From: Jimgerdemannia flammicorona
Lineage: Eukaryota
Assembly (NCBI GenBank): GCA_003990765.1
Contig: RBNJ01000218.1
Location: forward strand, 1 to 36,469
Length of the DNA stretch: 36,469 nucleotides
Reading direction: 5' to 3'
This document shows positions 2,933-29,471 of the stretch, piece by piece. Below the pieces are notes generated by a model, which saw only the letters and a program-made list of their open reading frames with translations, did not search any database and was not told the origin of the DNA. The position numbers and the translations under genes are program-made. The stretch's first letter is position 1, and each line of letters begins with the position of its first letter.

Positions 2933-2959
2933 TGTAAGTGCACAACCTCCAAGCCACCA

Positions 2960-3155
2960 AAATTATATGTCACCCTCTGAACAAACTACTGAAATCACAT
3001 GCGACCCCTGAACAAATCTGGAAATCACCTGCTTGATCACAAAGCTGAGTCAAACCGAAGTCACAGCATACAAAGCTGAGTCAATACAAAGTCACAGAAC
3101 ACAAGATCTATACAAATAGAATCTTACCAATCAGGACCAAACATATATATACTGA
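2960..3155 (+). promoter_or_regulatory. Putative upstream promoter module of the LTR (for the U3 ORF)
   Basis: TGAGTCA (AP-1/Gcn4-type) sites at 3046-3052 and 3077-3083 within a 31-bp duplication. A CRE-like TGACGT is intact in the C copies. A TATATA-type run lies ~75 bp before ATG 3225. Confidence 0.4.
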
Positions 3156-3224
3156 GTATCAAGATACATCGAAACAGAGAACCAAAACAAACAACAATAA
3201 CCACAAACTTCCAAACACATAAAC

Positions 3225-4322
3225 ATGACCACCAAGATTTACAACTGTATCTGTGCTGACATTTGGAATGCCATTGTCAACCGAGCTACACCCCCTCTGC
3301 CTCTTATGAATATCCATAGCCTGGCACCCCTCTACTTCATAGAAGCCCGATGGAATGCTCTGAACATACTTAGTGAGGCCCACTGAATCGGACAAATCTC
3401 AAGCTATTACCAGATTGGCTGCCTCCTGGAAGATATGGTCAAACACCACCACGATACAGACATTACCCAGATGTCTCAACACCAGAAGCTCATTGCCTGC
3501 AAACATTGAGAACTTTTCTACGAGTATAGTACTATTATTCCCCGTCTCCGAGTTACTACCAGCAAAATGGTTGCTACCCTGTCCTATGGCCAAATCGATG
3601 ACATGATATAAGAACTCAACCACAAGTACCTTGAGTACGTCCAGACCACAGACAGAACCTTCCCACACCCTGATGACCATATCCTGCATATGCCCTAAGT
3701 CGGATACACTATGAAGGACATCTACGATATAATCTGGTTCAATAAAGATGAAGCAGAAGATAATGATCCCTTAGACACCGATATGACCCCAAGCCAAGGA
3801 TCTCTACCAACACTTATTACACCACCAACCTTGCTAATGAACTTACAACAGTTCATAACCACATACAAGACTTATTGGGACAATGACCACTGGCATGAAT
3901 ACCAATCCACATTCACCCCCGATTACTTTAACTATAATGAAGAGACCGGAGAATACAATCTGTACCTCCAGACAACCCTTGAGATCGAACCAACCACTCC
4001 ACCACCCGAGTATGAGCGACATGAACCACAGCCACCAGCATACTACAATCCTGTGACTCATAGTACTGTAACCTACAGAAGGTATGCAGATAGCGAATCT
4101 GATGAAAGCAAAGATAATGCACCACTCCTTCATCCACCAATACCTTATCCAGCATACGAGACAGATAATGCTATCCTGTGGGATGGTGACAAAGTTCCGA
4201 TGTATTATTACCTCAGTGAATAAGGAGAAGTAATCCACAAACCACTTTTCCTAGATGACTACTTCATCAGAGATGATACAATCGATGGTGATGTCATCGA
4301 GGACTACCCAGACAGTGCCTAA
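3225..4322 (+). pseudogene. LTR(U3)-encoded ORF, 365 codons, unknown acidic protein with PPxY motifs (B 5' LTR copy)
   Basis: ATG 3225 to TAA 4322 spans 1098 bp, the same length as in the other three LTRs. Internal stops are C>T type and are open in at least one other copy. It includes track ORF 3711..4223. Confidence 0.85.
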
Positions 4323-4511
4323 ACCCATAAATAGCCTAGCAGTCATAGTATAGTTAGATTAGTATTGTATGATATGACTGTGAACTGACTCAGCAGTCAG
4401 ATGATCTCTTGACATGTCAGATCATACTTGTACTACGTGACTGTATTCTGACTCAGCAAGACACTTAGTGCTACATCTATATTGAGCATAGTCCAGATAG
4501 CCCCTCACTAG

Positions 4512-4519
4512 TATAAATA
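4512..4519 (+). promoter_or_regulatory. TATA box of the B LTR (likely genomic RNA promoter)
   Basis: TATAAATA followed by a C-run, conserved in all four B/C LTRs. The same TATAAATA followed by a C-run occurs in the D LTR (17251-17258). TGACTCA lies upstream at 4386-4392. Confidence 0.65.
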
Positions 4520-5002
4520 CCCCCTCCCCCAGACCTCAGAATCTCAGACACAAATATACAAGAACATTCCTGAATACTTCCCCCACAATATCTCTTCATA
4601 CAAACTACTCCTAGTATAGCAATATCATGAATAGCAAATAAATCTATTTGATAACTCTCAAACTACTCTTAAGTAAATCTGCTCCCTGTTAGGTCCCACT
4701 CTGAACCCCATCATGAAATTTCTAATTGGGTATTGTCTGCAGCAATATGCTGATTCAACTAAGCTGGTCTTAGTTTCTTGAACTTCCTGAAATACAGAAA
4801 ATCCTGAAAATCCAGAACTAGTCCGAAAAAGGACTTTGGTTGAGACATCAACCTGATCTTGAAATCAATAAGTATAGAGGATGTACTCCATATGAAATTG
4901 ATCTTGACCATAAGAAAACAATCTTCCAGAATATCTAGAACTTCCAGAAAACCCTTCCAGAACTACGTAACAGTTACCCTAAAAAGCAACCCTCTTACAA
5001 CT

Positions 5003-5015
5003 TGGGAGTAGCGGT
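5003..5015 (+). other. Primer-binding site of B (initiator tRNA-Met type, mutated)
   Basis: TGGGAGTAGCGGT lies 3 nt after the LTR. The consensus with C gives TGGTAGCAGCGGT, identical to D's PBS. Confidence 0.75.
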
Positions 5016-5106
5016 TTACAATCCAATTCCACTTCAAGACACTTCCTCACCCTGCTACAAACCCTTCTGCGAATTCCTACAAGTTGGTATAAAGCCCAAC
5101 CTCTGA

Positions 5107-8100
5107 ACTGGAATTTATTCTGAACCATCTGATAATCTGGAGAGAATTGAACCTGATGTATAAGGACAATTTGACCTCCACACCTGCAACAAGTGGGATA
5201 AACTTCATTCAAAGAAAGAAGTACTCCAATTAAACCAGCAAATAGGTGAAACCCTTTTCACCAAACTCCTTGCACTACACCCAGCAAGTCAAGACAAAGA
5301 AGGTCTTATTGAAGCCTTCTTTACTCTTCTCAATAAGAGTTTTGTCAGCTCCACAAATCTGAGCAACCTAGGACAATCAGCAGTAGTCTTTCTAGCCTTA
5401 GTTCCTCATGAAGCCCAAGCCTCTATAGCCAAGTGGCTCAACTCTACTGACTTTCACCATACCAGGACTAAGACCACATTATACTACTAATTCCAGAACA
5501 GCAAGGCCTGCTATATTCTTAAAGAAGAGGTAAGAGAAACCCTTCATCAACTACCTGACCCTGAACCTGAAGCAGGCCCTGCTACAGCCCTACCTGAATC
5601 TGAAACCAATACTGAACCTGAACTTAACTTTGGATTAAGTTCATCTGAAATCAGATATACAACTGATTCTGTCTACTTTGACACTGAGCAAACCCAATTA
5701 CACGGGGACCAAACTGAAGAAGAGGAGGAGTATCTCACTGAATTCGATCCCAGATATACCACTGAAGGAGATGCACTTCCATCAGGACAAAATACACCTA
5801 CACAGCAACAAACAGCTATCTATCAAGCCCTTACTCCAGATCCACAACTACTACTTCAGCAACTTACACAGACCCAAAGAACACCATCACACTCCACACC
5901 AGTACCTCAAGTAGTACTAGTAACACCACTACCAGCAGTCCAACTGCCTCCAGTAAACAACATAGCGAACCAACAGATTCTAGATCTCACAGCTCAGGTA
6001 GCCATAATGGCAGCAACCATTACTGCCTTAGCTGAACAGACCTGATCTACCAAAAATCTGAGCCTACCTACCTTCAATGGTACTGCATAAGAAGTCCAAA
6101 GCTTTATTAGTATAGTTGACACCAACTTCAAAGCCAATCAATGGACCAATGAGTGAGTTGCTAACTGTATTCTGATAAATAATCAAGACCACACTCTGGA
6201 ACAACTCTTTGCTACAACTACAGCCTATGTCCACTAAGTTGTTACATTCTTCTGAGGACCTGCCGAAGAATGGCGGCGAACCCTTCCTGAAAAACCCCTC
6301 ATATGAGATACCTGACCTGCAGTAGTTGCTCAGAATACAGCAAACAATGCCCCAGGATACGGAGCCCATCCTGCAGCCCCTAGACTCAAACAACTCATGA
6401 TTGCCCAATACCGCAGCGAAACCATGATTGCCAAATCTTGAGTAAAACTCTGCAACCTTAAATTTGATATACATGGCAAAGAAGAATTCGAAACCTTCTA
6501 TACAAAACTCGAGTCACTCCTGAACACTGTTGGCCTAGGATATATCGCCAATGATGAAGCACGAAATGATACAAGAGCAGACCATTTATTTGATGCTCTA
6601 CCTGAATAGCTTACTAGAAAAATCCGAGAACAAGGTCACCCAGTTGGTTGTGACCACCAACAATGGTGCCTGGCAAGAATCAAGACCATGGTCAAGTGAA
6701 TCCTAACAGCTGGACCAATTCTGCCCCAAAGATAATTCAATAACAAGGAAAGAACTTGGACCAAGAAAGAAGAACCCAAGCATGAAGCATCCCGAGCTCC
6801 CTCCACATCTATCTCTTGGACACCCAGAAATCATGAACCCACCCAGCCAAGTACCTTCAAGAAACTTACTGAAGGCGAAAGGAATGAACTTCGAAGAAGT
6901 GGAGCATGCTTCTATTGCCGAAAGACAGAACACATGGCCAGTGCCTGCTCTAATCGAAAACCCTGAACAGTAACCCAAGCAACTGTTACCACTCTGCACC
7001 ACCTCAACAACCTGACCACCAGAACACTGGACTTTGTCAAGTTAAGACAAACTGCTAAGGCCCTAATCAAAAGAAGTCAGAAAGCAGCTGGATATGACCT
7101 GTATGTAGCCGAAGAAGCTACAGTTTCCAACCAAGAAGTCAAACAAGTCTACACAGAAATCAGCATCCAAATACCTGAAAGACATATTGGAAAAATATGC
7201 TGTCGCAGCAGCCTAGCATTGAAAGGACTCACAGTAGAAGGAGGAATTATCAATGAAGATTACATAGGCGAAATCATTGTCCTCATCCGAAACCATAGTT
7301 GGATACCCTTCAAGATCCCTATTGGTTTCTGCATTGCCCAGATCCTATTTGAAAAAATTGAGTCAACCCTGACAGTTAAGGAAGTCCCTGAACTACTATC
7401 CACCATCTGAGGATCTAAAGGATTTGGCTCATCAAACAAGGCCCCAACCCAACCTATCATGAGCAAAGAAGAACAATTCTACAAGAAGATTGAAGATGGA
7501 TATATACCAAGTGGCTGATGCCCTCATGGCATTGAAATGTACTCTTCTCAAATAATTGATGATTGCTTTTCTTGTGTCAATGAACTGGCTCAAAGAAGAA
7601 CTAACAGAAGGAAAGCTCAAACAACCAAAATCACCACTATTGGATCAGACAAACTGCTCACCCTTAAGGCTTTTGTCAACAGAGCACCTGTCAAGATTAT
7701 GATAGACAGTGGTGCCTCAGGCAACTTCATCAATGAAGAGATAGCCAACAGACTCAAGGTCTTCACCTCCCCAGTACAACAAACTCAAGCAGTTGCTACA
7801 GCTGATGGAACCTCACATGTTATTAGCAAAGAAGTTCGCAATCTATCTTTCCGAATTGGTGACTACTAAGTACATGTTACCCTCCAGATCATACCACTTC
7901 CTGACAATGAAATCATCCTTGGAACTCTATGGTTAAAACAAGAGAACCCCATGATCGATTGGGTAAACCATTCTTTGACCATCAAGAAAGGATGCCACAA
8001 CTTCAAATTATAAGGTGAAAAGGACCCACTCAACTCTAGTAACCCTGGACAAAAGATCACCCACATCAACAAGCTACAACTCAAGAAATTGGCCAAGAAG

Positions 8101-11094
8101 TGCCCTCTCTTTGCCATCTCCATCCGTTCACCCAAAGGAGAACTCGAGAATTCTGAAGAAGATTTTTCCAAAGTTGACAGCCGTGTCAGACCACTACTTC
8201 AGAAATTTCGGGACATATTTCCAAAGAAGCTCCTGAAAGGCCTACCTCCCAAATGAGCAGTAGACCATGCTATCAAGACTATCCCAGATGCCAAACCAGC
8301 CTTCAAGTCAATCTACCACATGTCTCCGAGAGAAATTGATGCACTCAAGAAGGAAATCGATGAACTCCTAGAATAAGGATTCATCAGACCTAGTGTATTA
8401 CCCTATGGTACACCAGTCCTCTTCATTGTCAAGAAAGGAGGAGACCTGCGAATGTGTATTGACTACCGAGATCTCAATGAACAGACCATCAAGAACTGTT
8501 GCCCACTACCAAGGATCGATGAAATATTCGATAGGCTCACCAACCCACAATTCATGAGCTCCTTTGACCTGTGAAATGGTTACTGGCAAATTGCTATGAA
8601 AGAAGAAGACATCTATAAGACAGCTTTCCAAACTCACTATAGACACTTCAAGTTCCTGGTTATGCCCTTTGGCTTAACTAATGCTCCAGCAACCTTCCAG
8701 ATACTGATGAATACCATTCTGCATCCATATTTGGACAAATTCGTTGTCGTCTACATTGATGACATCCTAGTCTTCAGCAAAACTCTGGAAGAACATCTTG
8801 AACACCTTGAACTAGTACTACTGAAACTCTAAGAAAACTGACTCTTTGCAAAACTCAGCAAGTGTGAATTTCTCCTGAAAGAAATTCAATTCCTTAGACA
8901 CATTGTCACTCCAAATAGAATCAAAGTGGACCCCAGCAAAATCTCGGCAATCAAGGATTAGTCCAGACCCAAGAAGCTGAAAGACCTCCAGTCATTCCTA
9001 GGATTAGCAAACTATTACAGGCGATTTGTTGCCAACTTTGCTAAAATCGCTACTGCCCTCACCCAAATAACCAAGCACAGCAAGAAATAAGAACAACCCT
9101 GGACCATAAAACAAGAGAAAGACTTCAACAATCTTGTAAATTGGGGACCCAAACAAGATACTGCCTTTCAAGTACTAAAAGATGCCCTGATAATCACTCC
9201 AGTACTTCAAGTGGCAAATCCTGCCCTACCATATAAAGTTACTACTGATGCCTCTGATCTAGCTCTTGGAGCAGTGCTCATGCAAGAAGGACACCCTGTG
9301 GCCTATCACTCCCGCAAGTTCAATGATGCCGAAATCAACTATGCAACCCATGAGAAGGAAATGCTAGTCATTGTAGATACTCTGATCAAATGGTGACCAT
9401 ACCTAGAAGGAGCACACTTCACTGTATTGACTGACCACAAGTCATTAGTCAACATCAAGACCCAGGCTACCCTTTCACGAAAGCAAGCCAGATGGATGAA
9501 AGTCCTCACCAACTTTGACAATAAAATCCAGTACCGCCCTGGCAAGGAAAATATTGTTGCCGATGCAATCTCCAGACCACCAATTGAAGAAGTTATCCAA
9601 ACTCTCACCTTGGTTACAAACTCCATCATGGAACAAATTATCACAGCATACACTGATGATAAGGAAGCTCAAGCACTCTGAGAAATTCTGAATAGTGATG
9701 ATGCTTACAAGTATACCCAGTACAATCAATACCAACTGAAGGATAGTACTCTCTACTATAAGGACAGACTGTATGTCCCAAACAACTGAGACCTCTGAAG
9801 GACTATCCTATTTGAATGTCATTATGCCCCTATAGCTAGACATTTAGGATTTGATAAATGTTATAAAGTTATCTCCTGAAACTTTTATTGGCCCCACATG
9901 GCAGATCAGCTCAAGACCTACATCACTTCCTGTAATGCCTACCAACGAAACAAGTCCTCAATACTAGCAAAACCTGGCTTACTTCACCCTATCCCAGTAC
10001 CATCTGCGAATTGGGAACAAATCTCTATGGACTTTATTGTACAACTACTCCAAACTAAGAATGGGAAAGATGCAATTGTTGTCTTTGTAGACTACCTCAG
10101 CAAACAAGCCCACTTCGTGCCTACTACTACTACTGCAACAGCACCAGACATAGCCATACTCTTGTTTGACAATATCTTCCACTATCATGGTCTTCCTAAG
10201 ATCATTGTTAGTGACCGAGATCTGAAATTTACCAGCCACTTTTGGAAAGCCTTCCATGCACACCTTGGAACAAAACTTGCACTATCTACAGCCTTTTACC
10301 CAGAAACTGATGGCCAAACTGAAAGAATGAACCGAACTCTAGAACAAATGTTAAGGAACTATGTTTCCTACAGACAAGATGATTGGCATGAACACCTGAT
10401 AGCAGTAGAGTTTGCTTATAACAACAGCAAGCAAGCCTCTCTGGGAATGACCCCATTCTTTGCCAATACTGGACAAAACCCAAACACCCCTTTGACACTT
10501 ATCCGAACCACCAAAGAACCCTCCACAGTCGAAGCTGTTGAAGAATTCCTACTCTGAATATGTAATCTAAGCCAGATTGCAATTGAGAATTTATCACGAG
10601 CTCAAGAACAACAGTCACAGTATGTTAACCAACACCGCCGAGAAGAAACCTTTGATATTGGAGAAAAAGTTCTACTGGATATCAGAGGATACTGAGTTGA
10701 CAACCTGAAGCACAGACCATCTACAAAACTGAACAGCAAGTTCATTGGACCATTTGAAGTCATTGCATAAGTCTCTCCAACCTCCTATAAACTGGCGCTA
10801 CCAGATACCATTAAGATTCACTCAGTCTTTAATGTTCAATGTCTCAAGCAATATAATGAGAATGATGATGAGCTATTTCCAAACCGGACCATCAAACCAC
10901 CTACACCTGTCATTATTAATGATCAAGAAGAATATGAAGTTGAACAAATCCTCAACAAACATGGCAACAAAAACCACCCCAAGTACCTTGTCAAATGGAA
11001 AGGTTATCCAATCCATGACACAACCTGGGAACCCAAGACCAATCTCTAGAATGCTACCAACCTAGTTCAGGAATATGATTTCTTGAACAACTAG
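5107..11094 (+). pseudogene. gag-pol: Element B single-frame gag-pol (leader extension - Gag - Zn knuckle - dUTPase - Cys/His module - PR - RT - RH - IN - chromodomain)
   Basis: All domains are in one frame with point stops only. Motifs: LPTFNGT (Gag), CFYCRKTEHMASAC (6907-6948), [44 protein letters not shown] and EYEVEQIL..YLVKWKGY..TWEP. The probable Gag AUG position is 5962 (ATA here, ATG in C). Confidence 0.93.
7027..7434 (+). pseudogene. dut: dUTPase domain of element B (between Zn knuckle and protease)
   Basis: Motifs AAGYDL, RSSLA, GGIINEDYIGEI, IAQILF and GSKGFGSS. Confidence 0.92.
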
Positions 11095-11506
11095 AACCAA
11101 AATACTCCACACCTATCAATACATACTATATATTATCCTTCTGAATATTATAATTATGGTAAACCAAACCAAGAACTCAGCAAAACAAGACAAGAATACC
11201 GAACCCCTGGAAAAATAGCAAAACTGAAAGCAGGCCTATTCTCCCTGTACCACTGGTGGGAAACAAGACATAAACATTTAAGAAGATTCCTTAGAGGAAA
11301 TTCTCCAGCAGTGAATGATGTCAGAATTACTTCTGGCACATGGTATTGAACATATGACCCTTTAATGTGTGAATCCAATACGTTAGGCAACTGTACTACG
11401 AGCATGCCACTTTCTGAGAAAATGGATCTTACCAGACTTTTGACCTCCCAAATGGTGTAACAACACTAGAACAAATTAGAAGGCCCCGACGAGGATGTTG
11501 AAAGCT

Positions 11507-11519
11507 AAGAAGGGGAGAG
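11507..11519 (+). other. Polypurine tract of B
   Basis: AAGAAGGGGAGAG immediately before the 3' LTR TG at 11521. Confidence 0.9.
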
Positions 11520-11520
11520 T

Positions 11521-13466
11521 TGTAAGCGCACAACCTCCAAGCTACCAAAATTATATATCACCCTCTGAACAAGCCACTGAAATCACATGCGACCCCTGAA
11601 CAAATCTGGAAATCACCTGCTTGATCACAAAGCTGAGTCAAACCGAAGTCACAGTGCACAAAGCTGAGTCAATATAAAGTCACAGAACACAAGATCTATG
11701 CAAACAGAATCTTACCAATCAGGACCAAATGCATATATACCAAGCACCAAGACATGTCAAAACAGAGAACCAAAACAAACAACAATAACCACAAACTTCC
11801 AAACACACAAACATGACCACTGAGATCTACAACCATATCTGTGCTGACATTTGGAATACCATTGTCAACCGAGCCACACCCCCTTTGCCTCTCATGAATA
11901 TCCATAGCCTGACACCCCTCTACTTTGTGGAAGCCCGATGGAATGCTCTAAACATACTTAGTGAGGCCCACTGAATCGGACAAATCTCAAGCTACTATCA
12001 GATTAGCTACCTCCTGGAAGATATGGTCAAACACCACTATGATACAGATATTACCCAGATGTCTCAACACCAGAAGCTCATTGCCTGCAAACATTGAGAA
12101 CTCTTCTACGAGTATAGTACCATTATTCCCCGCCTCTAAGTTACTATCAGTAAAATGGTTGCTACCCTGTCCTATAGCCAAATCAATGACATGATACAAG
12201 AACTCAACCACAAGTACCTTGAGTACATTCAGACCACAGACAGAACCTTCCCACACCCTGATGACCATATCCTGCATATGCCCCAAGTCGGATATGCTAT
12301 GAAGGACATCTATGATATAATCCAGTTCGATGAAGATGAAGCAGAAGACAATGATCCCTTGGACACCGATATGACCCCAAGCTAAGGATCTCTGCCAACA
12401 CTTATTACACCACCAATCTTGCCAATGAACTTACAACAGTTCATAACCACATACAAGACTTATTGGGACAATGACCACTGGTATGAATACCAACTCGTGT
12501 TCACCCCCGATTACTTCAACTACAATGAAGAGACTGAAGAATACAATCTATACCTCCAGATAACTCTCGAGATCGAACCAACCACCCCACCACCCAAGTA
12601 TGAGCGATATGAACCACAGCCACCAGCATACTACAATCCCGTGACTCATAGTACTGTAACCTACAGAAGGTACGCAGATAGCGAATCCGATGAAAGTGAA
12701 GACAATGCACCACTCCTTCATCCACCAATACCTTATCCAGCATATGAGACAGATGATGCTATCCTGTGGGACAGTGACAAAGTTCCAATGTATTATTACC
12801 TCAGTGAACAAGGAGAAGTAATCTACGAACTACTTTTCCTAGATGACTACTTCATCAGAGATAATGCAATTGATGGTGATGTCATCGAGGACTACCCAGA
12901 CAGTGCCTAAACCCATAAATAGCCTAGCAGTCATAGTATAGTTAGATTAGCATTGTATGACGTAACTGTGAACTGACTTAGCAGTCAGATGATCTCTTGA
13001 CATATCAGATCACACTTGTACTACGTGACTGCATTCCAACTCAGCAAGGCACTTAGTACTACATCCATATTGAGCATAGTCCAGATAGCCCCTCATTAGT
13101 ATAAATATCCCCTCCCCCAGACCTCAGAATCTCAGACACAAACATATAAGAACATTCCTGAATACTTCCCCCACAATATCTCTTCATACAAACTACTCCT
13201 AGTATAGCAATATCATGAATAGCAAATAAATCTATTTGATAACCCTCAAACTACTCTTAAGTAAATCCGCTCTCTGTTAGGTCTCACTCCTAACCTCATC
13301 ACAAAATTTCCTAATTGGGTATTGTCTGCAGTGATACACTGATTCAACTAAGCTGATCTTAGTTTCTTGAACTTCCTGAAATATGAAAAATCCTGAACAT
13401 CCAGAACTAGTCCAAAAAAGGACTTTGATTGAGATGTCAATCTGATCTTGAAATCAATAAGTGTAG
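11521..13466 (+). repeat. Element B 3' LTR, first 1946 bp (interrupted by C)
   Basis: Colinear with the 5' LTR and breaks at TSD TGTAG (13462-13466). Confidence 0.95.
11813..12910 (+). pseudogene. LTR(U3) ORF, B 3' LTR copy
   Basis: ATG 11813 to TAA 12910 spans 1098 bp and includes track ORFs 12155..12385 and 12419..12910. Confidence 0.85.
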
Positions 13467-15528
13467 TGTAAGAGGGTTACTTTTTAGAGTGACCATTACG
13501 TAGTTCTGGAAAGGTTTTCTGGATATTCTGGATGTTCTAGAAGACCATTTTCTTATGATCAAGATCAATTTTATATGGAGTACATCCTCTATGCTTATTG
13601 ATTTTAAGATCAGGTTGACATCTCAACCAAAGTCCTTTTTTGGACTAGTTCTGGATGTTCAGGATTTTCCATATTTCAGAAAGTTCAAGAAACTAAGATC
13701 AGCTTAGTTGAATTGGCGTATCGCTGCAGACAATACCCAATTAGGAAATTTCATGATGGGGTTAGGGGTAGGACCTAACAGGGAGCTGATTTACTTAAGA
13801 GTGATTTGTGGGTTATGGAATAGGTTTATTTGCTATTCATGATATTGCAATACTAGGAGTATTTGTATAAAAGGGTATTGTGGGGAAGTATTCAGGAATG
13901 TTCTTGTGTGTTTGAGTCTGAGATTCTGAGATCTGGGGGAGGGAGTATTTATACTAGTGAGGGGCTATCTGGACTATACTAGATATGGATGTAGCACTAA
14001 GTACCTTGCTGAGTCGGAATGCAGTCACGTAGTACAAGTGTGATCTGACATGTCAAGAGATCATCTGACTGCTGAGTTAGTTTACAGTCACATTGTACAA
14101 AGCTAATCTAACTATACTATGACTGCTAGGCTATTTATGGGTTTAGGCACTGTCTGGGTAGTCTTCAATGACATCACCATCAATGACATCATCTCTGATA
14201 AAGTAGTCATCTAGGAAGAGTGGTTCGTGGATTACTTCTCCTTGTTGGCTGAGGTAGTAATATATTGGGACTTCATCTCTATTCTACAGAATAGCATCGT
14301 CTGTTTCGTATGCTAGATAAGGTATTGGTGGGCGAAGGATAGGTGTATTGTCTTCACTTTCATCAGATTTGCTATCTGCATACCTTCTATAGGTTACAGT
14401 ACTATGAGTCGCAGGGTTGTAGTAAGCTGGTGGCTGTGGTTCATGTCACTCATATTCAGGTAGTGAGGTTGTTGGTTCGATCTCTAGAGTTGTCTGGAGG
14501 TACAGGTTGTGTTCTCCGGTCTCTTCATTATAATTGAAGTAATCGGGAATGAATGCAGGTTGGTATTCATACCAGTGGTCATTGTCCCAATAAGTCTTGT
14601 ATGCAGTTATGAACTATTGTAAGTTCATCGGCAAGGTTGGTGGCGTGATCAGGGTTGGCAGAGATCTTTGGCTAGAGGTTATGTTGGTATCAGAGGGATT
14701 ATTGTCTTCTGCTTCATCTTCGTCGAAGTGGATTATATCATAGATATCCTTCATGGTATATCCGACTTGAGGTATTTGCAGGATATGGTCATCAGGGTGC
14801 GGGAAGCTTCTGTCTGTAGTCTGGATGTATTCGAGGTACTTGTGGTTGAGTTTTTGTATCATGTCATCGATTTGGCCATAGGACAGAGTAGCAACCATTT
14901 CACTGGTAGTAACTCGGAGGTGGGGAATAATGGTGCTATACTCATAGAAGAGTTCTTGATGTTTGCGGGTAATGAGCTTCTGGTGTTGAGACATCTGAGT
15001 AATGTCTGTATCATAGTGGTGTTCAACCATGTCTTCTAGGAGGCGGCCAATCTGATAGTAGCTTGAGATTTGTCCGATTCGGTAGGCCTTGCTAAGCATG
15101 TTCAGAGCATTCCATCGGGCTTCCACAAAGTAGAGGAGTGCTAGGCTATGGATATTCATGAGGGGCAGAGAGGGTGTGGCTTGGTTGATAATGGCATTCC
15201 AAATGTCAGTGCAGATACAGTTGTAGATCTCAGTAGTCATGTTTGTATGTTTGGAAGTTGTGGTTGTTGTTTGTTTTAGTTCTCTGATTCTACGTATCTC
15301 GGTGCTCGGTATATATGCATTTAGTCCTGATTGGTAAGATTCTGTTTATGTAAATCTTGTATTCCGTGACTTCATATTGACTCAGCTTTGTGCACTGTGA
15401 CTTCAGTTTGACTCAGCTTCATAATTAAGCAGATGATTTCCAGATTTGTTCAGAGGTTGCATGTAATTTCAGTGGCTTGTTCAGAGGGTGACGTATAATT
15501 TCAGTGGCTTGGAGGTTGTACGCTTACA
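13467..15528 (-). repeat. Element C 3' LTR (2062 bp)
   Basis: Reverse complement of the B LTR, adjacent to the minus-strand PPT (ACTCTCCCCTTCTT on +). Confidence 0.95.
14143..15240 (-). pseudogene. LTR(U3) ORF, C 3' LTR copy
   Basis: 1098 bp long, with the first 208 codons open (track ORF 14614..15240). Confidence 0.85.
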
Positions 15529-16997: not shown

Positions 16998-17400
16998 TGT
17001 AACATTTTAGCATAGTTTATTCCTTTTCTTTGTCTTTCTCCAATATTCTATAACCTTCTGGTACTTTCCGAATGCTTAGAAATCCTTTCTTGGCACTGAG
17101 CATTAACTAGTACTTATTTAGTTAGTCACTGAATGTCCTGGAAACTTGTAGAACTTTATTTGTCATCATTTATCATCTTTGCCAAGAACTTTCCTCTTGG
17201 CATTTTCCTTTGATTTCTCAGATCCTTCTGGATCCTTCTTTCAGATCTTGTATAAATATCCCCTTTGTTCTCATAAATAAAGCCTCAGAATATTTTCTCC
17301 CAGAAATCTTTTGAGAACACTTGAATCCTTAGTATCTCTTCGAGCTACTTAGGACTACCAGAATTAGTCACTTCCTCATTTAGAAACTAGAACCATTACA
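16998..17400 (+). repeat. Element D 5' LTR
   Basis: 403 bp with about 12 differences from the 3' LTR by eye, all transitions. Confidence 0.97.
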
Positions 17401-17402
17401 CT

Positions 17403-17415
17403 TGGTAGCAGCGGT
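17403..17415 (+). other. Primer-binding site of D (initiator tRNA-Met type)
   Basis: TGGTAGCAGCGGT lies 2 nt after the LTR. TGGTAGC is complementary to the 3' end (..GCUACCA) of eukaryotic tRNAi-Met. Confidence 0.85.
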
Positions 17416-17468
17416 GAAGTTACACCTAGCCTTATTAAGACACCTCTCAAGATATCAGTCACAACACT

Positions 17469-20400
17469 ATGGAGGACAATGGGTGGAACCCTTCATACAA
17501 TGCCTATGGTCCAGGCAATACCTCTTACCATCAGCAAGAAGAAGAAGAGGAACAGCCAATCCCCATCTAGTCAACTGGGTCCATCGAGAGTCTTTTGCAA
17601 ACTGCATTTGCTCAGATCGCCCAACTTCAAGAACGTGTAGAAAGAAAGGAAAGCAAGGCCTCTGCTCATACCTCCACACCTCTACCGACATCAATACATC
17701 CGACAGCAGTCACTATCAAGCCCCAGAAGCCTGATACCTTTGATGGTCAAAGAGGAGGACTGTCTACTGACACCTGGCTTTTCCAATTGGAGCAATATGG
17801 AGAACTGACCAATTTGGAAGAAACAACACTAGTCCAATTTGCCACCACACTCCTCTGAGAGAATGCTGCAATCTGGTGGCGAAATCATGTCCAGAATACC
17901 AGATTCTCTGGCCAAATCAAGACCTGGGGCAAATTCTCTAATGCTATTCAAGGCCAATTCAAACCAGTCAACAGCACCAAGACTGCACGAGACTGTCTGG
18001 CAAATGTCAAACAACTCAAGTCTGTACAAGCATACAATACACAATTCCTGTCAATTCTGCTAGAATTACCACATGTCACTGAAGACGAGAAGGTTGACAA
18101 GTATATCCAAGGTTTGAAAGGCCAAACTCGAGTTCGTGTTGAACTAGAAGAACCCAAGGACCTAGACACAGCAATGAAAATTGCTGATAGGTTTGATGTC
18201 ATCACCTATGGTCACCACTTTGAACAGAAGAGACCACCTTTCAACAACAACAACAACCACAGAAGGGAGGAACCCAAAGTCAGAACTGTTGGACCTGCCC
18301 CCATAGACCTAGACACCATCGACAAGAGCAAGAAAGGCAAGCTTACACCCAAGGAAAAGGAGCACCTTAAGAAGGCTGGAGCCTACTTCTTTTGCCATCA
18401 GCCTGATCACATTGCAACCAAATGTCCCAAGAAAACCGCGGAACCAAAGAGGATCCTGGTCCTGTCCAAAGACACTCAAGGTCAACCAGTTGAATAAGAA
18501 GTTGTACTCAATTTCATGCGAGTCAACTCCAAGGCCCAGATCCCTCAAGTACAGTCAGAAGGAGCCATTGGTTTGGACCTTCAAGCAGTACAACAAGTCA
18601 CTATTCCGGCACATGAAAGAAGGCTCATCCCAACTGGCCTTTCAGTCGAAATCCCCAAGAAACATTATGCAAGAATTGCACCAAAATCTGGCCTCAGCTT
18701 CAAGCACTTATTGGATGTTGGTGCTAGAGTCATAGACTCTGACTTCCGAGGTGAAATGCAAGTTCTGCTAGTCAACCACAAGAACCAGCCATATACCATC
18801 AATGAAGGAGATAGAATTGCACAGCTCATTCTGGAGTGAGCCACCCTACCAGTCGTCAAAGAAGTTACCAAGCTGTCTTCCACTAAGCGAGATCAGAAAG
18901 GCTATGGCAGCACTGACAAAGTTGCAAGCATAGCTGAGAACTGAGCCAATTCAATGCTCATTTTCAAAGGTCTAGTCAAGGGACAAGAACTAGATGTTCT
19001 CATAGACAGTGGAGCTGTTGGGAACTTCATCAACAAGAACCTCATCGACAAACTCAAGATTCTCACCAAACCAGCTGGCAAGAATGGTGGAGTTGTCACA
19101 GCAGATGGCACCACCTTACCAATTGACTCAATTACCGCTAAACTTCCCCTCAAGATCCAGAAGTACTGGGAACATTTAGATTTCGAGGTAGCACCACTAG
19201 GAGACCATGACCTGATCCTAGGCAAACCCTGGCTTACCCGGCACAACCCTCAGATTGATTGGACCAAGAATGAAGTCACCTTGATTCAAGATAGAGTCAA
19301 CATTACCATCAAGCCAGACAAGACTTAGACGAGAACCCCAATTGCTACCCTTTCAGCAATCCAGTTCAAGAAGGCCCTCAAGAAAGCTACCTGTGCCTTT
19401 GTAGCACTGATCCAACCAAAGAAAGAAGACAAGAAGCTATCAATCAATGAAAGCATCAAGTTACTGCTGAACAAGTACAAGGATGTCTTTCCAGGCAAAC
19501 TACCTGGTCTACCACCTTCAAGAGACCATGACCACGAAATCAAGTTGGTACCTGATGCAGCTATACCCAAGAAGAAAATGTACCACATGTCTCCACTCGA
19601 AATTGAAGCAGTCAAGAAGGAACTCAACGAACTCATCGAGTGAGGAGCCATTCAGCCAAGCAAGTCACCCTTTGGCTCCCCAGTCCTATTCGTCAAGAAA
19701 AAGGATGATACTCTGTGAATGTGCATAGACTACCGAGCACTCAACAAGATCACTATCAAGAACCACTATCTGCTACCGCTCATAGATCAAATCTTTGATG
19801 CCCTCAAGAATGCAAAGTACTTCACCAAGATTGATCTCACCTCTGGGTATCACCAAATTCGAATCAAGCCAGAAGATATACCCAAGACTGCCTTTATGAC
19901 ACCCTTTGGACTCTACAAGTTTCTAGTCATGGCCTTTGATCTCACCAATGCACCAGCAACCTTTCAAGACCTCATGCAAACTGTCTTCAAGGACCAGCTT
20001 TATATCTTTGTACTCGTGTACATTGATGACATCCTGATCTTCAGTAGCACTGAAGAAGAACACCTCAAGCACATCGAACAAGTCCTCAAGATCCTCCACA
20101 AGAACAAGCTCTATGCAAAGCTCAAGAAATGTGAATTTTTCAAGGATAAAGTTGAATACCTTGGACACATTGTATCAGCCAAAGGAATTCAAGTAGACCC
20201 AAGAAAAATACAAGCCATTGAACAGTGGCCTGTATCCGCAAACCTCACTGAACTCAGGTCCTTCCTTGGTCTGGCTGGATACTACTGTCGATTTGTCAAG
20301 AACTTCTCTGGCATCGCAGAATCTTTGACAAACCTCCTGCAAAAGAAACCCAACTCTGACCTCTATGTTCCCTACATCTGGGATGCCTTCTGTCAACAAG

Positions 20401-22299
20401 CCTTTCAAGAACTCAAGAACTGCCTGACCCATGCACCTGTTCTTAGGAACATGGACCCAAACTTGAAGTTCATAGTCACTACAGATACATCTAACTTTGC
20501 CATTGGTGCAGTCATTTCTCAAGATGATGGTCAAGGACACCGACCTATTGCCTTTGAGTCAAGAAAATTGTCCCCAGCAGAACAAAAGCTGGCTACTCAT
20601 GAAAAGGAACTCCTGGCAATCATACATGCCCTCAAGACCTGGCGACACTATCTAGAAGGAGTTGAGTTCAATGTGATCACTGATCACAGATCCCTTCAGT
20701 ATATCAACACTCAACCAACCCTTTCTTGCCAACAAGCCAAGTGGAGTCAACTGCTTCAGACCTTTACCCCAAACATCATCTACAAGCCTGGCAAAACTCT
20801 AGTTGTACCAGATGCACTTTCAAGGAGACCTGACCTTGCCACAATTTTACAAGTCACTGTAGCATCTGAATTCCTCAACCAGATCAAGAAGGCATATGAA
20901 CAAGACCCTCTGGTTCTACAAAGGAACACTAAGGAATTCAAGGAAAAGTACACCATCAAGGACAACCTCGTGTACTATCAAGACAAAGTATATATTTCCT
21001 GCTAACCCTGAACTACAGTATAAGATGCTTCATGAACACCATGACTCCCCACTAGCTGGCCACCTTGGAACTGAGAAGACTATCAAGAATATCCAACAAG
21101 ACTACTACTAGCCAAACATGCTCAAGGAAATCAAGGAGTATGTTCAAAGCTGCGATCTTTGCCAAAGAAACAAGTCAAGCAACCAAGCACCTGCTGGTCT
21201 TCTACAATCTTTGTCAATTCCAACCAAGAAGTTCGAACAAGTCACAATGGACTTCATTGTACAACTCCCATGAACCAAAACAGGCTATGATGCTATTGTT
21301 GTGTTTGTGGACCATCTCACCAAGATTACAATCGCCAAGCCAACCACAACCAATGCCACTGCCCCAGAAATTGCAAGAATCTTCTTCAAGACTGTCTTCC
21401 GCCATTATGGACTTCCCCAAGTAATTATTAGCGACCATGACCCCAAGTTCACAAGTCACTTCTGGCAAGCACTCTTCAAGACCCTTGGAACCCAAATTGC
21501 TATGTCTATGGCTTTCCATCCTCAAACTGATGGACAGACAGAGTGAATGAACAGAATACTTGAACAAATGCTCAGAAACTACATGTCCTATGAGCAAGAT
21601 GATTGGGACCACTATCTGACTTACGCCGAGTTCGCCTACAACAATGCCAACCAATCATCAACAGGTCTTTCCCCATTTCAGCTACTTCACAGTCAAAACC
21701 CCGAGACCTCTGCAAGTCTAGTCCAATTCCAGCAATCCAGTCACACACAAGTCCCCACAGCCCAGAACCTTATCAACAAAATGGATTCCCTTCTCAAGAT
21801 TGCCACTATGAACCTGCAAAAGGCTCAGCAACATCAAGCTAAGTATGCAGATAAGAAGTGGCGAGATGTCATATACAATATTGGCGATATGGTTCTACTC
21901 AAAGCTGACAACATCAAGGCTTAATCTCAAGTCAACCGCCAGTCAGCCAAATTCCAGCCCAAGTATCTTAGACTCTTCGAGATTACTGAGCAAGTCTCTA
22001 CGTGGTCTTACCATCTCAACTTGCCAACAACCATATGTATACACTCAGTATTCCATATGTCACAACTCAAGGCCTGGAACCAGTCACCCCCATACTCTGG
22101 TCAAATTCCAATGCCATCAGTGCCAGTCATAGTTGAAGACCACATTGAGTATGAAGTCGAGAAAATCTTAGACAAACGAGTCCGATACTGTCACACAGAA
22201 TACCTAGTCAAGTGGATGGGTTACCCTGAATATGATGCCACCTGGGAACCTGCCACCAACCTCAAGAACTCCCAAGACCTCATCCAAGAGTTCGAGTAA
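17469..22299 (+). pseudogene. gag-pol: Element D gag-pol (Gag - Zn knuckle - dUTPase - PR - RT - RH - IN - chromodomain)
   Basis: ATG at 17469. Motifs: KPDTFDG, (Y)[53 protein letters not shown] and EYEVEKIL..YLVKWMGY..TWEP. It has point stops plus one frameshift near 20995-21000. Confidence 0.94.
18507..18917 (+). pseudogene. dut: dUTPase domain of element D (between Zn knuckle and protease)
   Basis: Motifs AIGLDL, PKSGLS, VIDSDFRGEM, GDRIAQLIL and RDQKGYGSTD. Confidence 0.94.
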
Positions 22300-22626
22300 A
22301 AAGGAACTCATTGACTGCCTATGAGGTTCTCCCCTTGGATAGTAGATGACCTACTGTGCTGATCAGGCATATTACACATTGGGGCTCTCTAAGGGATACA
22401 GCATCAGAAGCAAGAGATACAGGAGAACCCTATAAATCCTGCAACCAATGAGGTTCGAACCAGTTCTCATCCAATCAAGATGATACTTTGGCCCTCATCT
22501 TATACAAGGATGGCCAATCCTTGCCAATGAGTCGGTATATTTAATTTGAGTTTCTTTTAGTCTTATTGTTTATCATGTGTAACTTTGAGAATTCAACAAG
22601 GATGTTGATTCTTAAGGAGGGGGAGA

Positions 22627-23029
22627 TGTAACATTTTAGTGTAGTTTATTCCTTTTCTTTGTCTTTCTCCAATATTCTATAATCTTCTGGTACTTTTCGA
22701 ATACTTAGAAATCCTTTCTTGGCGCCGAGCATTAACTAGTACTTATTTAGTTAGTCACTGAATGTCCTGGAAACTTGTAGAACTTTATTTGTCATCATTT
22801 ATCATCTTTGCCGAGAACTTTCCTCTTGGCATTTTCCTTTGATTTCTCAGATCCTTCTGGATCCTTCTTTCAGATCTTGTATAAATATCCCCTTTGTTCT
22901 CATAAATAAAGCCTCAGAATATTTTCTCCCAGAAATCTTTCGAGAACACTTGAATCCTTAGTATCTTTTCGAGCTACTTAGGACTGCCAGAATTAGTCGC
23001 TTCCTCATTTAGAAACTAGAACCATTACA
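22627..23029 (+). repeat. Element D 3' LTR
   Basis: Direct repeat of 16998-17400, preceded by PPT AAGGAGGGGGAGA. Confidence 0.97.
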
Positions 23030-23034
23030 TTCAG

Positions 23035-26000
23035 GGTAGTTGTACAATGAAGTCTATAGAGATTTGTTCCCAATTTGCGGATGGTACTGGGATAGGGTGA
23101 AGTAAGCTGGGTTTTGCTAGTGTTGAGGACTTGTTTCATTGGCAGGCATCACAGGAAGTGATGTAGGTTTTGAGCTAATCTGCCATGCGGGGCCAATAGA
23201 AGTTTTGGGAGATAACTTTGTAACATTTATCAAATCCTAAATGTCCAGCTGTAGGGACATCATGACATTCGAATAGGATAGTCCTTCAGAGGTCTCAGTT
23301 GTTTGGAATATACAATCTGTCCTTGTAGTAGATAGCATTGTCCTTGAGTTGGTATTGATTGTACTGGGTATGCTTGTCAGCATCATCATTGTTCAGGATT
23401 TCTCGGAGTACTTGAGCTTCTTTATCATCAACACATACTGTGATGATTTGTTCTATGATAGTGTTGGTAACCAAGGTCAGAGTTTGAATAACCTCTTCAA
23501 TTAGTAGTCTGGAGATTGCATCGGCAACAATATTTTTCTTGCCAGGGCAGTACTGGATTTCGTAGTCAAAGTTGGTGAGGACTTTCATCCATCTAGCTTG
23601 CTTTTGGGAAAAGGTAGCCTGTGTCTTAATGTTGACTAATGACTTGTGGTCGGTCAATACAGTGAAGTGTGCTCTTTCTAGATATGATCGCCATTTGATC
23701 AGAGTGTCTACGATGGCTAGCATTTCCTTCTCATGAGTTGCATAGTTGATTTTGGCATCATTGAACTTGTGGGAGTGATAGGCCACAGGGTATTCTTCTT
23801 GCATGAGCACTGCTCCAAGAGCTAGGTCAGAGGCATCAGTGGTGACTTCATATGGTAGGGCAGGGTTTGCCGCTTGAAGTACTGGTGTGGTTATCAGAGC
23901 ATCTTTCAGCACTTGGAAGGCAGTATCTTGTTCGAGTCTCCAATTTACAAGATTGTTGAAGTCTTTCTCTTGTTTCATGGTCCAGGGTTGTTCTTGTTTC
24001 TTACTGTGCTTGGTCATTTGGGTGAGGGCAGTAGCAATTTTAGCAAAGTTGGCAATGAATCGCCTGTAATAGTTTGCTAATCCCAGGAATGACTGGAGGT
24101 CTTTTAGCTTCTTGGGTGTGGGCCAATCTTTGATTGCAGAGATTTTGCTGAGGTCCACTTTGATTCTATTTAGTATAACAATGTGTCCAAGGAATTGAAT
24201 TTCTTTCAGGAGAAATTCACACTTACTGAGTTTTGCAAAGAGTCTATTTTCTTGGAGTTTCAGTAGTACTAGTTCAAGGTGTTCAAGATGTTCCTCCAGG
24301 GTTTTGCTGAAGACTAGGATGTCATCAATGTAGACAACAATGAATTTGTCCAGGTATGGATGCAGAATGGTATTCATCAGTGTCTGGAAGGTTGCTGGAG
24401 CATTAGTTAAGCCAAAGGGCATAACCAGGAACTCAAAGTGTCCATAGCATGTTTGGAAAGCTGTCTTGTAGATGTCTTCTTCTTTCATGGCAATTTGCCA
24501 GTAACCATTTCATAGGTCAAAAGAGCTCATGAATTGTGGGTTGGTAAGTCTATCGAATATTTCACGATCCTTGGTAGTGGGCAACAGTTCTTGATAGTCT
24601 ATTCATTGAGATCATGGTAGTCAATGTATATTTGCAGATCTCCTCCTTTTTTGACAACAAAGAGGACTGGTGCACTATAGGGTGATACGCTGGGTCTGAT
24701 GAATCCTTGTTCTAGGAGTTCATTGATTTCCTTCTTGAGTGCATCAATTTCTCTCAGAGACATATGGTAGATTGACTTGAAGGCTGGTTTGGCATCTGAG
24801 ATAGTCTTGATTGTATGGTCTACTGCTCATTTGGGAGGTAGGCCTTTCGGGAGCTTCTTTGGGAATATGTCTTGGAATTTCTAGAGTAGTGGTCTGACAT
24901 GGTTGTCAATCTTGGAAAAATCTTCTTCAGAGTTCTTGGGTTCTCCTTTGGATGGTCAGATGGAGATAGCGAAGAGAGGGTATTTCTTGGCCAATTTCTT
25001 GATTTGTAGCTTGTTGATATGGGTGATCTTTGGTCCAGGGTCCCTAGAGTTGAGTGGGTCCTTTTTGCCTTGTAGTTTGAAGTTGTGGCATCCTTTCTTG
25101 ATGGTCAGGGAATGGTTTACCCAATCAATCATGGGGTTCTCTTATTTTAACCATAGAGTCCCAAGGATGATTTCATTGTCAAGAAGTGGTACAATTTAGA
25201 GAGTAACATGTACTCGGTAGTCACCAATTCAGAAGGGTAGATTGCGGACTTCTTTGCTAATAACATTTGAGGTTCAATCAGCTGTAGCAACTGCTTGAGT
25301 TTGCTGTACTGGAGAGGTGAAGACCTTGAGTCTGTTGGCTATCTCTTCATTGATGAAGTTGCCTGAGGCACCACTGTCTATCATAATCTTGACAGATGCT
25401 CCATTGACAAAAGCTTTAAGAGTGAGCAGTTTGTCTGATCCAATGGTGGTGATTTCAGTTGTAGGAGCCTTTCTTCTATTGGTTCTTCTTTGAGCCAGTT
25501 CGTTGACACAAGAGAAGCAATCATCAATTATTCGGGAAGAGTACATTCCAATACCATGAGGGCATTGGCCACTTGGTATATATCCATCTTCTATCTTCTT
25601 GTAGAATTGTTCTTCTTTGCTCATGGTAGGTTGGGCTAGAGCCTTGTTCTCGGATTTTTCTAGTAAGCCATTCAGGCAGGGCATCAAATAAATAGTCTGC
25701 TCTTGTACCATTTCATGTTTCATCATTGGCGATATATCCTAGGCCAACAGTGTTCAGGAGTGACTCGAGTTTTGTACAGAAGGTTTTGAATTCTTCTTTA
25801 CCATATACATCAAATTTGAGGTTGCAGAGTTTTACTTGAGATTCAGCAATCATGGTTTCACTATGGTATTGAACAATCATGAGTTGTTTGAGTCCAGGGG
25901 CTGCAGGATGGACTCCATATCCTGGGGCATTGTTTGCTGCATTCTGAGCAACTACTGCAGGTCAGGTATCCCATGTGAGGGGTTTTTCAGGAAGAGTTCA

Positions 26001-29339: not shown

Positions 29340-29344
29340 TGTAG

Positions 29345-29466
29345 AGGACGTACTCTATACGAAATTGATCTTGACCATAAGAAAATAGTCTTCCAGAATA
29401 TCTAGAACTTCCAGAAAACCCTTCTAGAACTATATAATGGTTATTCTAAAAAGCAACCCTCTTACA
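29345..29466 (+). repeat. Remaining 122 bp of the element B 3' LTR
   Basis: Matches the end of the 5' LTR (~4878-4999), ends CTCTTACA and is followed by TSD CAGAT. Confidence 0.95.
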
Positions 29467-29471
29467 CAGAT

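Follow-up and report, generated by a model that had tools for sequence, protein, structure and literature searches.

The 36,469-nt stretch of Jimgerdemannia flammicorona DNA analysed here (contig RBNJ01000218.1; this whole stretch is referred to as the window) is a nest of four long terminal repeat (LTR) elements, in which element A is broken by B, B by C and C by D. Elements B and C represent one Ty3/gypsy chromovirus family, and each of their four LTRs contains, at the same place and wholly within the LTR, an open reading frame (ORF) of 365 codons. An earlier note on this DNA had described this ATG-to-TAA frame of 1098 bp in all four LTRs and had read it as an accessory protein-coding gene inside a chromovirus LTR. 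The four copies are indeed present:

3225-4322, plus strand: ORF copy B5, 365 codons plus TAA, five internal stops (codons 54, 95, 129, 158 and 333)
11813-12910, plus strand: ORF copy B3, four internal stops (codons 54, 95, 109 and 191)
14143-15240, minus strand: ORF copy C3, three internal stops (codons 209, 265 and 319)
27954-29051, minus strand: ORF copy C5, three internal stops (codons 42, 57 and 95)

The ORF begins 292 bp from the 5' end of the LTR and stops 677 bp short of its 3' end, thereby occupying 53% of the 2.07-kb LTR, and among the elements of the window such a long, ORF-bearing LTR is confined to the B/C family. The ATG, the TAA and a Kozak-like CAAAC-ATG context are kept in all four copies. 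A MAFFT alignment of the four LTRs features no indel within the ORF, and the ~969 bp outside it contain four indel events (one of 4 bp at ~3202 and three of 1 bp at ~4580, ~4605 and ~4721), in agreement with the earlier description; the chance that four random indels would all miss the ORF is 0.048. The internal stops had been described as being of C>T/G>A type and open in at least one copy, and this is true of all 15, each of which is a CGA>TGA, CAA>TAA, CAG>TAG or TGG>TAG change at a codon that is sense in at least one other copy. The openness of the frame is far beyond chance, given that 15-37 stops per copy interrupt the other two forward frames. A tblastn search of the window with the ORF recovered the four copies only, with all other matches at E > 0.1 and none in the other three retroelements.

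The four copies allow coding constraint to be separated from later decay. Both LTRs of an element are identical at insertion, so changes confined to a single LTR (singletons; 125 in the ORF) represent post-insertion decay and were used as a neutral control, whereas differences at which both B LTRs agree against both C LTRs (fixed differences, n = 62) mainly date from the period in which the two lineages were still transposing. The fixed differences fall overwhelmingly at codon position 3 (11, 6 and 45 at positions 1, 2 and 3; chi-square against an even spread, p = 3e-10), and 42 are synonymous as opposed to 20 non-synonymous, where 2000 spectrum-matched simulations gave 18.9±3.4 synonymous changes and never more than 30. 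Ten of the 13 fixed transversions are at position 3, and the synonymous B-versus-C transversions that had been singled out previously (ACA CTT > ACC CTG at 3812/3815 and GCA>GCT at 4040) were seen among the copies. Singletons, by contrast, are distributed 55, 21 and 49 over the three positions, with 48 synonymous and 77 non-synonymous changes, 10 of the latter being stops. The two classes differ both in their use of position 3 (Fisher, p = 2e-5) and in their synonymous to non-synonymous ratio (p = 2e-4), and the position-3 excess is present in all four quarters of the ORF. The test is conservative, because parallel CpG hits can only add neutral changes to the fixed class. We preferred this contrast to the Nei-Gojobori omega, which transition-only decay biases downwards: even when the paired LTRs of a single element are compared, it takes values of 0.23 and 0.42. 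The ORF also resembles gag and pol in its base composition at each codon position (for G at positions 1/2/3, 0.25/0.11/0.14 compared with 0.26/0.12/0.12 for pol). Collectively, these data show that the ORF was under protein-level purifying selection while the family transposed and B and C diverged, which bears out the central claim of the earlier note.

All four copies in the window are dead via C>T/G>A hypermutation. Singleton mutations in the four LTRs are almost all transitions with a marked context preference, in which 25 of 29 CpG sites have been hit, far ahead of CpA (27%), CpC (19%) and CpT (5%), and the CpG observed/expected ratio of the window is 0.23. This shows heavy cytosine deamination of the repeats. 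A process resembling repeat-induced point mutation, or a deaminase, is likelier than plant-type CHG methylation decay because the CAG/CTG pattern is asymmetric.

Relatives of the ORF protein outside the window were sought among 5.8 billion proteins by a word-indexed search and among 1.84 billion representatives by a full HMMER scan, and only two, P0001 and P0002, were found. P0001 (247 aa, from an ENA contig of 998 nt) aligns to ORF residues 115-364 with 65% identity and 82% similarity; over these 250 residues there are two 2-residue gaps and no stop, and the C-terminus is at the same place. Non-coding DNA that had diverged this far would hardly be expected to show such conservation. P0002 (128 aa, JGI) corresponds to the N-terminus and features Arg at codons 54 and 95, where window copies have TGA. 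A third candidate, P0003 (ENA, 436 aa, built from ~68-residue repeats), was scored at E = 2.4e-6 by HMMER and was rejected as a chance match inflated by its repeats. These share a LSFDKIADFIEKLN motif with ORF residues 119-132, hhalign gave a probability of 21% over 37 columns, and none of the stretches behind its 24 listed Pfam matches (E from 1e-10 to 0.2) passed alone.

Further family members were retrieved as Logan contigs from four soil-metagenome runs in three studies, the runs having been found using the ORF itself. Pieces that fall on 2934-6200 numbered 4221, 373, 824 and 33, with 80-99% likeness to the window. Among the indels listed (12 of 33), none is in the ORF, three are at 3190-3205 and nine at 4548-4721, while 16 of the 22 listed differences within the ORF are at codon position 3 (binomial p = 2e-4). 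Loose ends of these contigs translate in frame, and no joint that skips the whole ORF was seen among those listed. A related-locus search of metagenome contigs matched 152 patterns, none of which was confirmed, and an exact 26-base search gave no matches.

An accidental open frame in a long LTR could be suspected from the stops in all four copies, the lack of any family match and a structure prediction without confidence. We give this almost no credence and consider it refuted: the fixed differences are biased to position 3 and to synonymous changes, the frame is free of indels, a 65%-identical homologue is open with in-frame gaps, and the other forward frames contain 15-37 stops. The frame of 365 codons is a genuine, once-functional accessory gene of this chromovirus family.

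The encoded protein has a predicted isoelectric point of 4.4-4.6. Its C-terminal 220 residues include 21 Tyr, 23-25 Pro, 42-45 Asp+Glu and 10-12 Lys+Arg, so the acidic, Tyr/Pro-rich C-half proposed in the earlier note is confirmed by composition; for the possibly helical N-half, AlphaFold2 (alignment A1) places helices, at low confidence, in the first ~140 residues and models the remainder largely as coil, with a mean predicted local distance difference test (pLDDT) score of 32.9 and a predicted template modelling score (pTM) of 0.23. The protein is neither env-like nor Sag-like, because it has no hydrophobic or membrane segment (19-residue hydropathy maximum ≤1.18). Two stretches are especially acidic and aromatic: residues 160-185 (9 Asp+Glu, 1 Lys+Arg and 7 FWYLIM of 26) and residues 326-365 (11 Asp+Glu, 1 Lys+Arg and 15 FWYLIM of 40). 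Acidic stretches mixed with aromatic and bulky hydrophobic residues are a composition like that of acidic activation domains. The blocks kept between the ORF and P0001 are rich in aromatic residues (FPHPDDHIL, LQQFITTY.TYW, PDYFNYNE.TGEHNLYLQTT, AYYNP, PP.PYPAY, YYYL and EPLF.D.YFIRDD.ID).

Pfam analysis of the four X-read copies gave a single sub-threshold match to GrpE (E = 0.14) and no DNA-binding domain, and nothing was found in Pfam for P0001 and P0002. A PDB profile search returned only matches to ribosomal protein S15a at E = 0.3. In the ESM Atlas, P0001 had no feature match (pLDDT of its own model 0.39, TM-scores ≤0.30) and the open 208-residue N-terminal piece reached a best score of 0.82 against a bar of 0.9. 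The ORF protein is thus an orphan: soluble, acidic and without a known fold. A match to a captured host gene or to the ORF of another transposon, which the earlier note had regarded as damaging to its proposal, was not found in Pfam, PDB, the ESM Atlas, the 1.84 billion representatives or the tblastn search of the window.

These searches bear on whether the ORF is a passenger, meaning a host gene or foreign ORF captured in the LTR and kept by hitch-hiking or by a benefit to the host, with no role in transposition. The protein has no retroelement-like domain and its family is very narrow, as would suit a passenger, but neither the 1.84 billion representatives nor the 5.8 billion word-indexed proteins include a cellular homologue. 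In addition, the B-versus-C differences arose under purifying selection with the ORF already at the same place in the LTR, and its codon-position composition is like that of gag and pol. Capture of a passenger is therefore highly unlikely.

The earlier note had also reported two PPxY motifs in the C-half of the protein, and both were found in copy B5:

3999-4013, plus strand: PPPEY
4032-4043, plus strand: PPAY

PPAY is intact in all four copies. PPPEY is intact in two, with B3 reading PPPKY, which is still PPxY, and C3 reading SLPEY, so that PPPxY is kept in three of four. PPxY is an established WW-domain ligand, and its role as such in viral late domains is described in PMC2171676 and PMC2958808. 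The function of the protein could be to recruit a NEDD4/Rsp5-type HECT ligase, whose WW domains would bind the tandem motifs; the two are only six residues apart, and a mere ~0.25 PPxY would be expected by chance from the C-terminal composition. However, at the two sites P0001 reads PLSEY and PLAY, despite conserved flanks (TT..EYE.HE.QP.AYYNP), and P0001 is not obviously decayed since it features no stop in 247 codons. The motifs are therefore not kept in the only divergent relative available (n = 1), which speaks against the proposal that PPxY is the functional core of the protein. A literature search likewise found no case of PPxY or Rsp5 in LTR retrotransposon accessory proteins among the papers listed. 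The HECT-ligase idea appears weakened but not killed, because P0001 lacks both motifs yet is a single divergent relative, and we regard ligase recruitment as an improbable function for this protein.

The carrier of the ORF could be delineated in full for element B and, for element C, by its LTRs and target-site duplication:

2933-4999, plus strand: 5' LTR of B, 2067 bp, with TGTAAG...CTTACA ends
2928-2932 and 29467-29471: target-site duplication of B, CAGAT, 5 bp
5000-11110, plus strand: internal region of B, one frame, with Pfam matches
within the internal region of B, plus strand, in the same frame as pol: gag with a CCHC knuckle (Pfam)
7054-7434, plus strand: dUTPase of B (Pfam)
~7633-7992, plus strand: protease of B (RVP_2/gag-asp_proteas)
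8425-8895, plus strand: reverse transcriptase of B (RVT_1, 7.7e-33)
9142-9516, plus strand: RNase H of B (RT_RNaseH, 6e-31)
9787-10293, plus strand: integrase of B (Integrase_H2C2, rve)
10660-10854, plus strand: SH3 of B (SH3_Tf2-1)
10933-11076, plus strand: chromodomain of B (Chromo, 5.5e-14)
11507-11519, plus strand: polypurine tract AAGAAGGGGAGAG, directly 5' of the 3' LTR of B
11521-13466, plus strand: 3' LTR of B, first part, broken by element C
29345-29466, plus strand: 3' LTR of B, last 122 bp, resuming past the C insertion
13467-15528, minus strand: 3' LTR of C
27278-29339, minus strand: 5' LTR of C
13462-13466 and 29340-29344: target-site duplication of C, TGTAG, 5 bp
~17002-23035: element D, inside C

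The TG...CA ends, target-site duplications and polypurine tract of an LTR element are all present, and B has the pol order protease, reverse transcriptase, RNase H and integrase, with a chromodomain at the integrase C-terminus. This domain set identifies the carrier as a chromovirus, and it is a dUTPase-bearing Ty3/gypsy chromovirus with unusually long LTRs (2067 bp). Element C, on the minus strand, sits in the 3' LTR of element B, which is on the plus strand, and B in turn interrupts the RNase H region of element A, which lies in the flanking sequence (1-2932 and 29472 onward). Three of the nested elements are distinct dUTPase-bearing Ty3/gypsy families. Compared with B, element C lacks ~806 bp (B 6636-7442; C junction 25642/24564) that comprise the end of gag and the entire dUTPase; as ~806 bp cannot be divided by three, C is either a deletion derivative or lost this segment at a later time. 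The nearest named relatives of the pol protein are from streptophyte and green algae (Chara, Closterium and Haematococcus, 44-50% identity), with 37-40% identity to fungi and up to 53% to metagenome proteins. A quick pol tree placed B and C outside the seed-plant chromovirus clade (Shimodaira-Hasegawa-like approximate likelihood ratio test support of 99) and was otherwise without resolution.

Between the end of the 5' LTR and the recognisable gag core of B, 5000-6000 is nearly open in the gag-pol frame, with a first ATG at ~6000. This segment has no indels between B and C, and codon position 2 is the least changed within 5300-5900. A long, acidic N-terminal extension of gag is one possibility, an unconventional start another. 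Elsewhere in the window, a LINE-like reverse transcriptase lies near 33.7-34.4 kb and a tandem array (62-248, 33-nt unit, 5.7 copies, 91% matches) lies upstream of the protease region of element A. No Rfam matches and no tRNA genes were found in the window. A check for self-priming over 4480-5060, in which complementarity of the primer-binding site to the beginning of R would mark the transcription start, gave one 11-nt inverted pair only (4772-4782 with 5033-5043); its right arm is ~30 nt past the LTR end, and it was not accepted as a primer-binding site.

Candidate regulatory features flank the ORF on both sides within the LTR:

2972-3104, plus strand: tandem repeats (30 nt x2 and 31 nt x2.2) in the 5' part of the LTR
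3046 and 3077, plus strand: two invariant TGAGTCA sites, in the 31-nt repeats
3143-3152, plus strand: TATA-like ATATATATAC, 73 nt 5' of the ATG, core kept in all four LTRs
4386-4455, plus strand: two TGACTCA sites (4386 and 4449) between the ORF and the second TATA box
4512-4519, plus strand: TATAAATA TATA box, 190 bp 3' of the ORF, kept in all four LTRs
4637-4642, plus strand: AATAAA, present in all four LTRs

The order of a TATA box and AATAAA downstream of the ORF is the usual layout of an LTR, in which a unique 3' region (U3) is followed by the repeated region (R) and the unique 5' region (U5). Save for single-site C>T decay, the downstream TGACTCA sites, TATAAATA and AATAAA are kept in the four copies, where TATAAATA is the presumed promoter of the genomic RNA, with a U3/R border near 4545, and AATAAA the presumed poly(A) signal in R. 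The 2972-3104 repeats and ATATATATAC are, respectively, a candidate enhancer and a candidate promoter of the ORF. The earlier note had placed the ORF upstream of the LTR TATA box and hence in U3. The first part stands, as TATAAATA is conserved 190 bp downstream of the ORF, and this makes U3 placement plausible, with the qualification that a second TATA-like module lies upstream. Several family members among the soil contigs are wholly unlike the window at ~4549-4603, just past TATAAATA, which amounts to replacement of a segment where R presumably starts.

If the upstream module were the only LTR promoter, the ORF would instead lie in a long R or leader as the first cistron of the genomic RNA. 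The transcription start is not fixed by sequence data, and the upstream repeats, the TATA-like core and the ATG context are kept in all four LTRs, all of which is compatible with such an arrangement. However, it requires an R of ~1.5 kb (from ~3180 to the AATAAA at 4637) and puts gag-pol behind a 365-codon upstream ORF, and it leaves aside a canonical TATAAATA with its own TGACTCA pair that has been kept between the ORF and AATAAA. An R or leader location is therefore unlikely.

Accessory genes within U3 are known from a few retroviruses. The sag gene of mouse mammary tumour virus (MMTV) encodes a superantigen and lies in the U3 of the LTR, and it resembles the present case in being a complete accessory ORF (~320-365 codons) upstream of the main TATA box that is duplicated in each provirus. 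There is no sequence similarity between sag and this ORF in Pfam, PDB or the 1.84 billion representatives, Sag is a type II membrane glycoprotein whereas the ORF protein has no hydrophobic segment, and sag belongs to a betaretrovirus, the present ORF to an env-less Ty3/gypsy chromovirus. The foamy-virus tas/bet genes and nef of human immunodeficiency virus are accessory genes that run into the U3 of the 3' LTR, and they are comparable in that accessory coding sequence overlaps U3. They merely overlap it, however, whereas the ORF here is wholly inside the LTR, and they share no similarity with it. Foamy-virus Tas, an acidic protein, transactivates the LTR of its own virus, and this provides one possible reading of the acidic and aromatic C-terminal part of the ORF protein.

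Other LTR retrotransposons also carry a lineage-specific extra gene beside gag-pol. Fungal Gypsy elements feature an 'add. ORF' (PMC2864245), bdelloid rotifer LTR elements feature ORF3s along with a dUTPase (PMC5408684), and env-like or uncharacterised ORFs are found in plant Tat, Athila and Retand elements. As far as the available sections of these sources go, such additional ORFs lie outside the LTR, either upstream of gag or in the interval from pol to the 3' LTR; the present ORF starts 292 bp inside the LTR, 3' of the polypurine tract. Extra genes of the env-like or ORF3 type often encode transmembrane or coiled-coil segments as well, and the ORF protein has no hydrophobic segment. In its domains, the carrier itself matches dUTPase chromoviruses of the fungi Postia placenta (PosPlaTy3), Phanerochaete chrysosporium and Tuber melanosporum, which have gag, dUTPase, protease, reverse transcriptase, RNase H, integrase and chromodomain, with the dUTPase before the protease (PMC2864245). 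A 2.07-kb LTR that holds an ORF is not mentioned in the accessible part of that paper.

Messages for the ORF3s of LTR retrotransposons are usually spliced (PMC5408684), and the present ORF follows pol in the genomic RNA. It might therefore be expressed from the 3' LTR copy only, through a spliced subgenomic RNA and with no promoter of its own, as for env, MMTV sag and rotifer ORF3. This seems improbable, as the region 5' of the ATG resembles a promoter instead and, by eye, which is weak evidence, has no pyrimidine tract with an AG just 5' of the ATG.

A complete selected ORF within the LTR of a gag-pol-only retrotransposon was not found in the literature outside subscription journals, where, in the portions accessible, the only cases are retroviral. 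The papers covered include PMC10787394, PMC6875170, PMC3087523, PMC2864245 and PMC5408684, and the placement of the 'add. ORF' in PMC2864245 may bear on this negative result.

The best explanation overall, which we hold to be fairly probable, is a selected accessory gene whose LTR is a self-contained cassette and whose product is a trans-acting adaptor. As the ORF is carried whole inside the LTR, there are two copies in each element, and one would be kept in each solo LTR. The TGAGTCA repeats and the TATA-like ATATATATAC would drive an ORF mRNA of ~1.5 kb that would end at the LTR's own AATAAA. The second module, comprising the two TGACTCA sites and TATAAATA 3' of the ORF, would start the genomic RNA, and the ORF would therefore be in U3. 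The product, we conjecture, would act in trans as an adaptor to host factors via its short acidic/aromatic and Pro/Tyr motifs, whether to transactivate the LTR, for trafficking or against silencing. With low confidence, we favour a Tas-like transactivator or some other adaptor based on short motifs.

Several observations weigh against this explanation. No intact full-length copy was found, either in the window or among the outside relatives. TGA at codon 54 is common to both B LTRs, so the parent of B may already have had a dead ORF, although parallel CpG hits are an equally good reading given that 25 of 29 CpG sites have been hit. P0001 begins at the equivalent of Met115, and its N-terminal third is therefore perhaps broken or missing. 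The family may also be narrow and short-lived, as it has two relatives among 1.84 billion representatives. The soil-contig counts refer to the matches listed, beyond which there are a further 21 indels and 623 differences, and some of the differences repeat those already counted between B and C. The proposed promoter map and U3 placement are based on sequence motifs, and TGASTCA occurs 20 times in the window against 10.8±3.4 in shuffled sequence, a roughly 2-fold excess that 1 of 100 shuffles reached. With regard to function, a mean pLDDT of 32.9 and zero family matches offer little guidance.

In its strongest form, this explanation makes the LTR itself a gene: a promoter-ORF-terminator cassette that occurs twice in each element, is kept in solo LTRs and encodes a product that acts in trans on its own LTRs or on host silencing or trafficking factors. 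We consider this possible, albeit rather doubtful. If true, the genome would be seeded with a dispersed multigene family for an orphan acidic protein, the element would be the first non-retroviral LTR retrotransposon for which an LTR-encoded protein has been described, and the layout of MMTV sag and foamy-virus tas would have been invented independently. Retrotransposon LTRs are usually treated as non-coding control regions, and both annotation and age estimates assume that they are neutral. In families such as this one, LTR-divergence dating would be biased by selection and solo LTRs could stay expressed genes. Accessory genes in U3, so far described for a few vertebrate retroviruses, could also arise in chromoviruses that otherwise have only gag-pol, and the orphan protein is an entry point to a possibly new way in which retroelements manipulate their host.

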